Shown here piece by piece: positions 11,617 through 21,191 of a stretch of DNA of 64,000 nt. The first letter of the stretch is position 1; each line of letters opens with the position of its first letter. The DNA comes from an uncultured Clostridium sp. (GTDB lineage: Bacteria > Bacillota > Clostridia > TANB77 > CAG-508): NCBI GenBank assembly GCA_945865665.1, contig CAMBEE010000001.1, positions 71,874-135,873 on the forward strand, given 5' to 3'. The notes below the pieces were generated by a model. That model saw only the letters and a list, made by a program, of their open reading frames with translations, was not told the origin of the DNA and made no database searches. Position numbers and translations under genes: made by a program.

Positions 11617-11883
11617 ATGGAAAAAATAAAAGTAATAATTGCAGATGATATACAAGCTATTGTAGAAAGTAATAAACGAATTGTTGCATCATTTGATAAT
11701 GTTGAGGTTATTGTGACTGCATACAATGGCCAAGATGAGTATGAGATGATAATAAACTTACAACCAGATTTTGTAAGCAATAGAAGAGAGGTAGAAGTAG
11801 ATATGGAAAAGTGTAAAAAAAAGAATACAGAACATTGCACAAAATCAAAGTTTTGTGCAAAAAGGAATAGGAGTAAAATATAA
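11617..11883 (+). pseudogene. Truncated response-regulator receiver-domain fragment
   Basis: MEKIKVIIADDIQAIVE...IVTAYNGQDEYEMIINLQPDFV is a CheY-like receiver N-terminus. It runs into repeat R1 after about 60 aa. There is no output domain. Confidence 0.5.
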
Positions 11884-12731
11884 AACCATAGTTATATGGT
11901 CCTACCCATGAAATCTTGCTACTCCTTTAATAAAGCCTATTTTAGCATCTTATACTAACAACAAACTATACTACTTTTATATAAAAACCTCTTAAAATTG
12001 ATTCTGAAGCTTCATTAATTTAGCTTTTACTTGGTTGGATTTTTTTTCATTATTGTAACTACATATTTTCAAAAAAATTTTATATAACTTTAGATTATTT
12101 TATCAAAATTTCACAAATCCCCATATTTCAGTATTTTGCTTGATTTTGCAGACAACAAGTTATATGCCTTAAAAATAAAAACGCCTTAAAATCGATTCTC
12201 GTGCGTCACTTTTTTAGCCATTTTTAAGCATTTTTAATAAATGCCTAAAAATCAGCATTTCTACTTAAATAATATAATAAATATTAGTTTTTTTAATTTA
12301 CACATCTAATTTAAAACATATAACTTGTTAAATAAAATATTAAAATGTCTTAAAATCTATTTTGACGTGTCATAAATATAAAATTATATTATGGATTTGT
12401 AATCTAAAATTATATAATAGTTATTCAAAAATTTTTATAAAATTATAATGAAAAATTTATTTACAAACATTTTTAACAAATGTTCGTTTTTTAAAAATTA
12501 ATAATAAAAATTCACTTTACACAAAATTTTTAAATTTTTAATTATTAGATTTTAATTATAAAATTTTTTAAAATTCTAATTCTAAATTTTAATATTAATT
12601 TTTTGAAAAATTTTATTTTATATCTTTTAATAGTATAAAAAATTTCTTTATGTATTTATTTTTTTGTTTTAAAATTTATTTAAAATTTCTATTTTTGTAT
12701 TTTCTCAAAAATAGCCTATTCCCCTATTCCC
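11846..12731. repeat. Non-coding repeat module A (R-box + three degenerate about 60-bp units + about 400-bp unit)
   Basis: Homologous at about 75-90% to 13486-14208. It ends with ctcaaaaatagcctattcccctattccct. The units share cttaaaatcgattct. Confidence 0.8.
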
Positions 12732-12795
12732 TATTGATTTTTCTACGTATAGTAATTATTATTTATTGTTCTTCATTCTATTTATAAGTATGTTA

Positions 12796-18949: not shown

Positions 18950-19252
18950 CTACCGATTTCTTTGAGTTAAATCTGAAGGTCGCCACGGACAGTCTAAATG
19001 ATGAAGTGCAATTATTTTATTTTGGCAGTTTGTTCCTGCTCCCATTTTTGCAGTAGATCCCATTAAAACTCTTATATTTCCTGCTCTTACTTTTGAAAAT
19101 AATTCTTGTTTTTGAGTATCATTATTTGCATCATGTATAAACGCAATTTCGTTTTCTGGTATTCCTTTTTCAATTAATTTTCGTTTTAAATCTGTATATA
19201 CACCTGTAAATTTCCATTCTTTTAGTTTCCATTTTCTGTCTACAAGTTCCAT
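18950..19252 (-). pseudogene. C-terminal fragment of an SNF2/DEAD-like helicase (helicase motif VI region)
   Basis: IRVLMGSTAKMGAGTNCQNKIIALHHLDCPWRPSDLTQRNR. No upstream catalytic core is in frame. Confidence 0.45.
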
Positions 19253-19341
19253 CTCATATCATAAACAAATCAGAACTTTTTTGTGCTTCAGTTTGGGCTA
19301 TTCCTCCAACATTACGCATTTTCGTGTATAAATATAGATTT

Positions 19342-20028
19342 TTAAAACCGATGCGCTTCATCAACAAATAATTTATCTGTTCTTCTGCTATTATCTTGTA
19401 ATTGTTCATTAGACCTACCCATTTCATTTAGTCTTTCATTTTCAATTTCTCGTTTACTCCATCTTGTTTCGCCATTTTCTCTACTATTTGTTTTATCATT
19501 TTCGTTGCTTGTTCTTGTATTTGTGATAGATGTAAAGCTAATTCGTTGTTCATCACTAATATTGTGTATTCTGCTTTCTTCTGTGTTTTTAGATAATGTA
19601 GTCTCATTTTTGCGTATTTTCCATCTGGAATCTTCTCCCTCTCCATTGTTAGATTTGGTATATTGTAATCTCCTACTTTCGTGTATGTTATTTTCTTCAT
19701 AATCAATTTCTCCTTCAATTTTTTCTCTAGCATTAATATTGCACCTTGTCATCATCATATATGAAACACTTGCCCATACACAAGGAACATACAAACTATA
19801 TAGTTCATCATCTGTATATTGTTCAAATTGAGTTCCTTTAATGTATTTTTTTATAGATGACATATAATCTTGAATATTATCAGTTACCATATTATAAGCA
19901 TTACGAATAAAATCATATTTGAAATTCCAACTACTACTATCTAAAAATGAGAGCAAATTTTCTTCTGTTTTAGTTACTTCCAATAATGTTTCTTTATATA
20001 ATTTTCTTGTTTCTGTTATTCTTCCCAT
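19342..20028 (-). pseudogene. N-terminal part of the same large helicase-type protein, carrying frameshifts
   Basis: The frame ends with LFVDEAHRF (motif II DEAH). The middle of this frame is junk-like. An overlapping frame (19428-19733) encodes a protein-like segment MKKITYTKVGDYNIPNL..., implying at least two frameshifts. Confidence 0.45.
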
Positions 20029-20048: not shown

Positions 20049-20276
20049 TTAATTCATATCAATAAAAAAGTCCCATAATCCTTTAGTTTCTATTGCTTCT
20101 TGCATACTCCATATTGTTTCTATATCTTTTAATGTTAATTTGGGTATATTATCATTTTGATTTATCTTTTTTAATTCAGATACTTTCATGTTCAAAATAT
20201 CTTTTTCATTTGTCATATTTATACTTTTTAATTTTTTTAATAAATTCTTTTTACTTTTAGAACTATTTTCTGGCAT
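20049..20276 (-). CDS. Hypothetical small protein
   Basis: 75-aa ORF with an AGG-rich upstream sequence. No recognisable family. Confidence 0.25.
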   Translation of the reverse strand: MPENSSKSKKNLLKKLKSINMTNEKDILNMKVSELKKINQNDNIPKLTLKDIETIWSMQEAIETKGLWDFFIDMN

Positions 20277-20338
20277 TTTGCACCTCTTTCACAAAAAAAT
20301 AACCTTACTTTAAGTTTTAATCAAAATAAGGTTTTCTA

Positions 20339-20368
20339 TTGACTTTTTTATTAAATTTGTATTATAAT
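20339..20368 (+). promoter_or_regulatory. Consensus sigma-A promoter TTGACT-17-TATAAT driving a short + strand RNA
   Basis: ttgact at 20339-20344, a 17-nt spacer, then tataat at 20363-20368. No ORF follows. Confidence 0.5.
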
Positions 20369-20374
20369 AAGTAT

Positions 20375-20466
20375 AGGAAATGACAATTCCGTAAGATACG
20401 GTTTTGCCACGAAAGAGTTTTTTATAAACCATTCGCCCTGCAAAAGTAGAATGGTTTATTTTTTAT
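20375..20466 (+). ncRNA. Candidate about 90-nt antisense small RNA (type I antitoxin-like), ending at a rho-independent terminator
   Basis: It is promoter-driven. The terminator is aaaccattc-(14 nt)-gaatggttt plus attttttatttat at 20426-20466. The RNA is convergent with, and overlaps the 3' end of, the small hydrophobic ORF on the - strand. Confidence 0.35.
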
Positions 20467-20582
20467 TTATGTAGTTGCTTATCAACCCAGTTCTTATAAA
20501 GAACTGCAATTAAGGCAACGTTTAATGTTAAAGATAACATTAGCAATATTACAAAAAATAGTATTACTTTAACCATAAACAT
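20463..20582 (-). CDS. 39-aa hydrophobic peptide MFMVKVILFFVILLMLSLTLNVALIAVLYKNWVDKQLHK: candidate type I toxin
   Basis: RBS AAAGGTGGTG 4 nt before ATG. A single TM followed by a charged tail. A 13-bp inverted repeat (acggttttgccac at 20398-20410 and its complement at 20614-20626) brackets the locus. Confidence 0.35.
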   Translation of the reverse strand: MFMVKVILFFVILLMLSLTLNVALIAVLYKNWVDKQLHK

Positions 20583-20711
20583 CACCACCTTTCCTACGAT
20601 GTAATCGCAAAATTGGTGGCAAAACCGTTCCACTAATCATCAATTTCCTATACAAAATATTCTACAATATTTTTTTAATTATGTCTATAATATTTCTAAT
20701 TTTTATTTACT

Positions 20712-21191
20712 TTACTTTTTTACTTTTTTCTTATAATCATAAATTAATGTACCAACAAATAATATAGCAGATAATCCGCCAATTAAAGCAAATATTCCTG
20801 TATGTCTATCATCTCCTGTGTTTGGCACTTCGATTATATCATTTTCAAAATTAATGTTATATATTGAATCATTTTCTGCTATTAAATCCCCATCAACAAA
20901 TACCCCATTATCATTTATTTCAATATTTACTACTTTATTTGATAATTCATATCCAGCTGGTGCTTTTAGTTCTTTTATATAATATTTTCCATATCGTAGT
21001 TCTTCAAATATAACATATCCATCATTTTTATTTGATTTTACTTCTTTTATCAAATTATTACATTCTTCATCTTCATAGATTCCAAATACAAATTTTTCTT
21101 TTATTAATTCTTTGGTTTTACTATCTATTTTATTTAGTTTGATATTTTTTAATATCGGCATCTCTTTCTTCTTGTGTTGTAAAGAAATCAT
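20712..21191 (-). pseudogene. C-terminal fragment of a sortase-anchored surface protein (CnaB/SpaA-like domain + VPNTG sorting signal) lacking a signal peptide
   Basis: FVFGIYEDEE...YIKELKAPAGYEL is a CnaB-like segment. The C-terminus is VPNTGDD, then a TM, then KKKVKK. There is no N-terminal hydrophobic signal. The start overlaps the parA stop. Confidence 0.5.

Follow-up and report, generated by a model that had tools for sequence, protein, structure and literature searches.

A candidate type I toxin-antitoxin cassette of a previously undescribed family in uncultured gut Clostridia, with a predicted 5'-3' fold-back of the toxin mRNA

Toxin-antitoxin (TA) systems of type I are difficult to detect through homology, and among the Clostridia only those of Clostridioides difficile have experimental validation; the toxins of this species have 34-59 amino acids (aa), an N-terminal transmembrane (TM) helix, and a charged C-terminus (PMC6563280). 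In the par/fst system, an intramolecular stem-loop sequesters the Shine-Dalgarno (SD) sequence, and intramolecular pairing buries the 5' end of the toxin mRNA (PMC7472228). The present study deals with a cassette of about 375 bp in a 64,000-nt stretch of DNA (hereafter, the window) from an uncultured Clostridium sp. (GCA_945865665.1, contig CAMBEE010000001.1). A gene for a small hydrophobic peptide on the - strand and a small RNA (sRNA) gene on the + strand converge there on one hairpin. Judging by its sequence and conservation, the cassette is probably a type I TA module of a previously undescribed family.

The closest layout is that of par/fst of Enterococcus faecalis pAD1, which likewise has convergent promoters at the ends of a ~350-400-bp cassette and one shared hairpin, together with an SD-sequestering stem-loop, a buried mRNA 5' end, and a ~35-aa toxin that has a charged tail besides its TM helix (PMC7472228). 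As in hok/sok of plasmid R1, a long-range 5'-3' stem would close the full-length mRNA, and an upstream box holds the SD sequence (PMC9841398; predicted in silico for the cassette studied here). With txpA/RatA and bsrG/SR4 of Bacillus subtilis, the cassette has in common a convergent antitoxin RNA overlapping the 3' end of the toxin mRNA, an expected duplex-triggered decay, and a link to integrated mobile elements (PMC6563280). The C. difficile systems CD2517.1/RCd8, CD0956.2/RCd10, and relatives are similar in general traits only, namely their occurrence in Clostridia, their convergent overlapping genes, their small toxins with a TM helix and a charged C-terminus, and their location in mobile regions (PMC6563280). 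The family is best read as joining a par-like shared terminator, a RatA-like 3' antisense overlap, and a hok-like fold-back. All sequence-level predictions that follow from a type I TA reading and were open to an in silico test held, which supports this reading.

The distribution of the cassette was determined by a scan of one genome per GTDB species (185,579 genomes), which gave 291 confirmed loci; 80 loci were kept for follow-up (L numbers). Main-family comparisons included 54 loci, five loci (L082-L086) were divergent, and 68 loci had full flanks. In blastn of the 80 related loci against the window, similarity ended at about positions 20331 and 20706 in nearly all of them, and the flanks did not align. 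The unit was kept from predicted transcription start to predicted transcription start in 65 of the 68 full-flank loci; the start-to-start length was 274-284 nt in 61 of these 65 conserved loci and 279 nt in the window. Promoter-like sites were not enriched in the motif scan (17 found, 20.7 expected from shuffles), so it is the conservation in many loci, and not the scan, that marks the cassette as more than chance. The carriers were mostly metagenome-assembled genomes of low-GC gut 'Clostridia' or 'Clostridium sp. CAG', some being labelled Bacilli, Anaeroplasma, or Tenericutes. Cluster look-up placed one member peptide on at least 1000 contigs, and the 56-aa extended open reading frame (ORF) matched 53 relatives without names. 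Two cassette copies occurred in at least five genomes among the 80 loci kept; a tandem head-to-tail pair lies at L084:1178-1613, where the second copy starts ~120 nt past the end of the first. The cassette is thereby confirmed as real, with all the elements described from the sequence being present. Its features in the window are as follows.

20331..20706, both strands: whole conserved cassette, ~375 bp, from the -35 box of the sRNA promoter to that of the toxin promoter (blastn of the 80 related loci against the window).
20339..20368, + strand: sRNA promoter TTGACT-18-TATAAT, 11/12 matches (-35 box, 20339-20344; -10 box, 20363-20368; motif scan).
20373..20468, + strand: candidate antitoxin sRNA, ~96 nt, comprising a 5' single strand AUAGGAAAUGAC, a hairpin, a spacer, and a terminator (conservation, fold).
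20389..20401, + strand: sRNA 5' hairpin CCGUA-AGA-UACGG (fold), the complement of which on the toxin strand is a weak terminator-like site.
20413..20373, - strand: 3' arm of the predicted panhandle, present only in transcripts reading through the shared hairpin; exact complement of the sRNA 5' domain (repeat search, folds).
20424..20459, both strands: shared hairpin, intrinsic terminator of the sRNA and minimum sRNA-mRNA overlap; 11-bp perfect stem (20424-20434/20449-20459), then TTTTTTATTT.
20576..20463 (20582..20463 from the first ATG), - strand: candidate toxin ORF, 37 aa plus stop (39 aa from 20582; sequence, translation, selection).
20583..20594, - strand: SD region GGAAAGGUGGUG (sequence), predicted to be paired with a probability of ~1.
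20595..20611, - strand: leader hairpin within the anti-SD/SD helix (fold).
20615..20620, - strand: anti-SD GCCACC, partner of GGUGGU (fold).
20651..20613, - strand: 5' arm of the predicted panhandle, the first ~38 nt of the toxin mRNA, near-identical to the first ~38 nt of the sRNA (repeat search, folds).
20687..20659, - strand: toxin promoter TAGACA-17-TAGAAT, 10/12 matches, with a predicted start at ~20651 (motif scan).

A preliminary description of this DNA, made from the letters alone, had placed the module at 20339-20626; this range holds the core, with the toxin promoter and the leader up to ~20651 lying outside it. The sRNA promoter elements named there are present, although with a spacer of 18 nt rather than 17 nt, and TTGAC[AT]-17/18-TATAAT was found in all 68 full-flank loci. 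The position of the toxin promoter is conserved, its sequence occurs in about three versions, and it is weaker than the sRNA promoter. On the sRNA side, conservation begins 4-5 nt past the -10 box, and no non-coding part of the cassette is better conserved than the sRNA 5' domain. An RNA gene of ~90 nt without an ORF, overlapping the toxin 3' end and ending at a strong terminator, had also been proposed, and the sequence bears this out: the + strand at 20373-20468 has no ORF of at least 20 aa, only the four-codon AUG-ACA-AUU-CCG-UAA, and no ORF is conserved there across the loci. The stem of the sRNA 5' hairpin is kept with other sequences in other lineages (CCAC/GUGG, UGCA/UGCA, and CCGCA/UGCGG), and the fold z-score of the sRNA against shuffles is -2.9. 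The terminator occurs in at least four unrelated sequence alleles, all with a stem of 9-12 bp, C-G to U-A exchanges included. In the sRNA direction, at least five T in eight follow the hairpin in 46 of 55 loci, and the U-tract overlaps the toxin stop codon. In the toxin direction, there are mostly two to four T in eight, and one in eight in the window. The hairpin, common to both units as stated earlier, is therefore not strictly a shared terminator in the window, since it has no U-tract in the toxin direction. The convergent promoters of a par-type bidirectional terminator arrangement are present; the hairpin is predicted to end the sRNA efficiently and the toxin transcript poorly, and in most loci, the window included, a strong U-tract follows it in the sRNA direction only.

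The inverted repeats indicate how the two RNAs may be related. Two pairs were detected: 20398-20413/20613-20628 (16 nt, 94%) and 20357-20381/20643-20667 (80%), the latter extending over the -10 boxes and, in both RNAs, the first 9 nt. The 13-bp inverted repeat noted in the preliminary description is thus present and is longer than reported, amounting to ~35 nt, and makes both RNAs open with AUAGGAAAUGA...GUGGUUUUGCC (at length, AUAGGAAAU...ACGGUUUUGCCAC). In a read-through toxin transcript, the last ~35 nt are predicted to pair with the first ~35 nt. RNAalifold predicted this panhandle from the 54 loci with four compensatory pairs. A tetranucleotide of the untranslated region and both arms of the sRNA hairpin change jointly in the window lineage (4/4 loci), and the common form is kept in the others (50/50). 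Loci L082-L086, the toxins of which are ~40-60% identical by inspection, have start-to-start lengths of 267-280 nt and a strong 5'-3' duplex of changed sequences (UUAAUUGCC/GGCAAUUG, GGUUUGCC/GGCAAACC, GUUACC/GGUAAC, and GUUGCCAC/GUGGUAAC, plus changed extreme 5' ends). Compensatory changes were observed in six lineages. Against shuffles, the toxin mRNA had a fold z-score of -5.6 when ended at the hairpin, and the 279-nt transcript from start to start had one of -9.6.

The alignment of the arms with MAFFT was too poor across the divergent lineages for clean pair counts, and per-locus duplex energies and a cognate matrix were used instead. The mean duplex energy was -43.7 ± 3.6 kcal/mol for the toxin strand, -30.5 ± 2.9 kcal/mol for the opposite strand, and -12.4 kcal/mol for shuffled sequences. 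The toxin strand paired better in 54/54 main-family and 5/5 divergent loci, imperfect positions of the arms being G.U on this strand. Such a strand asymmetry would not be expected from a simple duplication, a protein operator, or a repeat at the DNA level. Cognate arms averaged -37.2 kcal/mol versus -28.9 kcal/mol for non-cognate ones, and the cognate partner ranked first or second in 8 of 9 rows. Pairing of the sRNA 5' domain (50 nt) in trans with the leader or the ORF was considered and rejected, the energy being -19.1 kcal/mol versus -19.7 kcal/mol for shuffles; because no above-chance target exists in the leader or the ORF, the strict conservation of this domain needs a read-through partner. 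The hok fbi-like fold-back suggested earlier is thus supported in silico by the co-evolution of the arms and by the strand asymmetry.

The SD sequence GGUGGUG is predicted to pair with GCCACC located 25 nt upstream with a probability of ~1 whatever the 3' end of the transcript, within a leader of 75 nt. In L082, where the SD is GGAGGU and the anti-SD is GCCUC, GCCUC:GAGGU co-varies. At the place of the leader hairpin, four unrelated sequences were found in the divergent loci and lineages. According to these models, the primary toxin transcript is predicted to be translationally inert, its SD being sequestered. A local GUGG/CCAC hairpin that would free the SD after removal of the 3' arm was not supported, since the short transcript keeps the SD paired. 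At 20643-20651 and 20373-20383, both RNAs open with AUAGGAAAUGA, an SD-like AGGA followed by AUG at +8, after which there is no conserved ORF; this start might be a 5' ribosome-binding or stability element besides its role in the panhandle. A mok-like or sRNA-encoded small ORF from the conserved AGGAAAUGA was rejected, indels breaking the frames. A mok-like overlapping frame is likewise not conserved in the leader, where the upstream ORF has 2-60 codons and reaches the toxin start in 30/56 loci.

The 39-aa translation of the candidate toxin ORF is MFMVKVILFFVILLMLSLTLNVALIAVLYKNWVDKQLHK, and GGAAAGGTGGTG lies upstream of the ORF. Both ATG codons are conserved. The distance to GGTGG is only 2 nt for the first (20582) and 8 nt for the second (20576), which makes the 37-aa product more likely. 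The peptide has one TM helix and a polar or charged tail of the last ten residues, KNWVDKQLHK, including a Trp; the grand average of hydropathy (GRAVY) is 2.73 for residues 4-27 and -1.83 for residues 28-37. The hydrophobic - strand peptide with a TM helix, a charged tail, and a ribosome-binding site described previously (20582..20463) agrees with these values, apart from its length. The motif S[LI][TI][LI]NVAL..[VI][LI]Y..W[VA][DN]K[QE] is conserved and is found even in the members that diverge most. In 50 distinct ORF sequences, variation at the three codon positions was 39/24/109 and the pooled ratio of nonsynonymous to synonymous polymorphism (pN/pS) was 0.25, which at the sequence level shows purifying selection on the ORF. 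Codons 17-23 and 30-39 are invariant, third positions included; by prediction, they lie in helices formed with the SD/start region and inside the ORF, which suggests that the RNA itself is constrained in addition to the coding sequence.

A profile search of 1.84 billion protein representatives returned only 26 clusters at 50% identity, and the peptide family is therefore tight. The peptide had no family match in Pfam, NCBIfam, PHROGs, or PADLOC. In the search for Fst-, Ldr-, or TxpA-like families that had been recommended, no match was obtained in Pfam or NCBIfam, and the Fst_toxin/Ldr and Hok_Gef models were not matched at E up to 10. No functional name was attached to any cassette copy examined, and cluster look-ups gave the peptide no name. 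No Rfam family reached the gathering threshold in the whole window, and the region 20200-20800, searched to E up to 10, had no match below E = 0.1. No description of the cassette family was found in the literature.

These features also set the cassette apart from each of the described systems. Unlike in par/fst, the repeats are inverted and not direct (DRa/DRb), the sRNA 5' domain copies the leader without covering the start site, and the segment pairing with the mRNA 5' end is found within the antitoxin gene, past the shared hairpin. The sRNA is ~95 nt long versus ~40-65 nt. The peptide, having no Pro or Gly at all, lacks the PXXXG motif of Fst, and it does not match Fst_toxin. In contrast to hok/sok, the host is Gram-positive, there is no Hok_Gef homology, and the antisense RNA, its gene being at the 3' end, complements the 3' arm and the terminator and not the 5' leader; moreover, removal of the 3' arm does not release the SD in silico. 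Compared with txpA/RatA and bsrG/SR4, the cassette shows no peptide or RNA match (Pfam, NCBIfam, and Rfam), an sRNA of half the length, an extra 5'-3' panhandle, and a coding overlap restricted to the stop codon. The tail KNWVDKQLHK is not lysine-rich as in the C. difficile toxins, and the cassette, unlike these, is not phage-associated. The phage and plasmid collections gave no tblastn match to the peptide; that they hold C. difficile toxin homologues was assumed from PMC6563280, and the peptides were not compared pairwise. The resemblance to fst/RNAII and txpA/ratA pointed out in the preliminary description is consequently one of layout only, without PXXXG, direct repeats, or a match to a toxin or antitoxin model.

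In the mechanism proposed for the type I TA module, the toxin transcript would for the most part continue past the shared hairpin and end at the opposite side of the cassette (~279 nt), and 5'-3' pairing would give a closed, stable, and untranslatable mRNA, analogous to the tac/fbi stem of hok. The sRNA would be the exact complement of the last ~95 nt of this transcript. Being complementary to its 3' end, the sRNA would necessarily resemble the 5' end of the toxin mRNA, as the pairing partner of both is one and the same 3' segment. Binding would perhaps start at the complementary terminator loops, as in par; the sRNA would then displace the 5' arm, open the panhandle, and form a long duplex, which may be cut by an RNase III-type enzyme, as for RatA/txpA and SR4/bsrG, or the message may otherwise be kept silent. 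After loss of the cassette or of the mobile element, the short-lived sRNA would be gone, the stable mRNA would be processed and translated, and the putative toxin would damage the membrane. Within this scheme, we tentatively propose that the antitoxin acts by mimicry: its 5' domain may compete with the mRNA 5' end for the same 3' segment, open the panhandle, and expose both ends to decay without masking the ribosome-binding site. This we consider possible, somewhat short of an even chance.

Several points weigh against the TA reading and the mechanism described. An sRNA displacing the 5' arm without triggering decay might activate the mRNA. No terminator is evident past the 3' arm, where the toxin transcript would meet a strong promoter head-on; in some loci, such as L082, a long U-tract follows the hairpin in the toxin direction as well, and read-through may be rare there. 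The covariation stems for the most part from a few lineages and was in part assessed by eye. The loci were picked by peptide similarity, by which the purifying selection appears inflated. A plasmid-addiction role is not supported, PLSDB plasmids having no copy of the cassette and phage collections almost none: blastn and tblastn gave no match in PLSDB plasmids or INPHARED phages, the peptide matched none of 50,697 phage and 72,556 plasmid records at E up to 10 (tblastn, low-complexity filter on), and viral contigs gave one match in 2.9 million.

The ORF might instead encode a non-toxic small membrane peptide, e.g., an accessory or regulatory one of mobile elements, the level of which is tuned by a cis-antisense sRNA. 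The evidence for expression control would fit such a peptide equally well, and no homology to any proven toxin was found. We nevertheless regard this explanation as unlikely, because the cassette is self-contained, present in unrelated contexts, and multi-copy, its message is silenced at the SD, the start codon, and the 5' end, and the antisense promoter is always stronger than the sense one. Degraded copies argue in the same direction: L015, L021, and L029 have lost the toxin promoter and the 5' leader while retaining the ORF and the sRNA gene, and in P0048 and P0050-P0053, the ORFs are broken, frameshifted, or fused. Such copies are consistent with inactivation of a harmful gene, and the combination of silencing and decay is typical for toxins and unusual for benign small proteins.

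A type I TA system acting through short transcripts only would end its mRNA at the shared hairpin, and its sRNA would act via the ~40-nt terminator overlap by par-like kissing; the inverted repeat would then be a 5' stability element shared by both RNAs (AGGA + AUG, STAB-SD-like) or a duplication under gene conversion. It is true that some alleles of the hairpin (L082 and the GCTCACATCT alleles with TTTTT) make a good terminator in both directions, that both RNAs begin with AGGAAAUGA, and that Fst RNA I and RNA II make their first contact via terminator loops (PMC7472228). Neither explanation of the repeat accounts for the strand-asymmetric pairing, with G.U on the toxin strand in 54/54 and 5/5 loci. 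In addition, the arms co-vary in sequence as far as the extreme 5' nucleotides despite their different local structures, and the window hairpin has no U-tract in the toxin direction; a system confined to short transcripts thus seems distinctly unlikely. A decaying repeat or a mobile element of the miniature inverted-repeat kind, with an ORF and promoters that are fortuitous in AT-rich DNA, we consider a very improbable explanation of the unit. Such an element would be discrete, as the cassette is, and would occur, as it does, in many unrelated contexts, often at contig ends, with inverted repeats near both ends. The repeats, however, begin at the predicted transcription starts and not at the ends of the conserved block, the variation of the ORF is codon-position-specific, and divergent members keep the ORF, the SD, both promoters, and all hairpins while the sequences change. 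A miniature inverted-repeat transposable element was also rejected because the outer edges are not conserved, the toxin-promoter side existing in about three unrelated versions.

No neighbouring gene cluster was common to more than 13 of 81 loci. Across the loci, the neighbours included TnpV, Mob_Pre relaxases, a serine recombinase, TrbL, a VirB4-like ATPase, an M23 peptidase, and a SpaA adhesin, but also RNase J, GltX, and ABC-F. The cassette is thus a stand-alone unit in unrelated contexts, often among mobile-element genes and sometimes multi-copy. In the window, it is set in a decayed mobile-element remnant with chromosomal genes on either side: Fur, rubrerythrin, and a glutamate-synthase-like gene on one, and MgtC and PBP1 on the other. 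The remnant includes TnpV and Helicase_C fragments (18950-19733), a SpaA/LPXTG stub, ParA, and a Fic fragment. On the - strand at 18950-20028, the ORFs are fragmented and overlap; they comprise relatives of a protein of 852+ aa in L001, the Helicase_C fragment, and TnpV (19428-19733), which is nested within a 228-aa ORF in another frame; these observations indicate a pseudogenised large mobile-element gene. The 159-aa SpaA/LPXTG-type ORF at 20712-21191, adjoining ParA, corresponds only to the C-terminal end of a larger adhesin; L001 holds the intact adhesin of 914 aa with eight SpaA repeats, and what the window has of it is a truncated remnant. The cassette is followed immediately downstream by a 75-aa ORF (20049-20276, - strand), which has a good SD and no family match. 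As it was common only to L001 and L002, it was rejected as a part of the module. Farther away, a region of ~900 nt (11844-12754) has no ORF of at least 50 aa inside and no Rfam match, and is 80.8% identical to L022:624-1497, which is likewise ORF-free and lies ~1.5 kb from the L022 cassette copy. A decayed gene and a long non-coding element are both conceivable here.

What is new is the family itself, the general principle of type I TA being already familiar; the arrangement of an antitoxin as a 5' mimic together with a panhandle is plausible as a new variant. If true, the mimicry logic has not been described for type I TAs in Firmicutes, and it would concern a family widespread in uncultured gut Clostridia and their mobile elements. 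The candidate family occurs in hundreds of uncultured gut species, often on mobilisable or conjugative elements, and its ~375-bp module could serve to test the stabilisation of mobile elements in gut anaerobes. It also has potential as a counter-selection or containment tool. The six lineages with compensatory changes provide a natural data set for studying long-range 5'-3' control of a putative toxin mRNA in a Gram-positive background.

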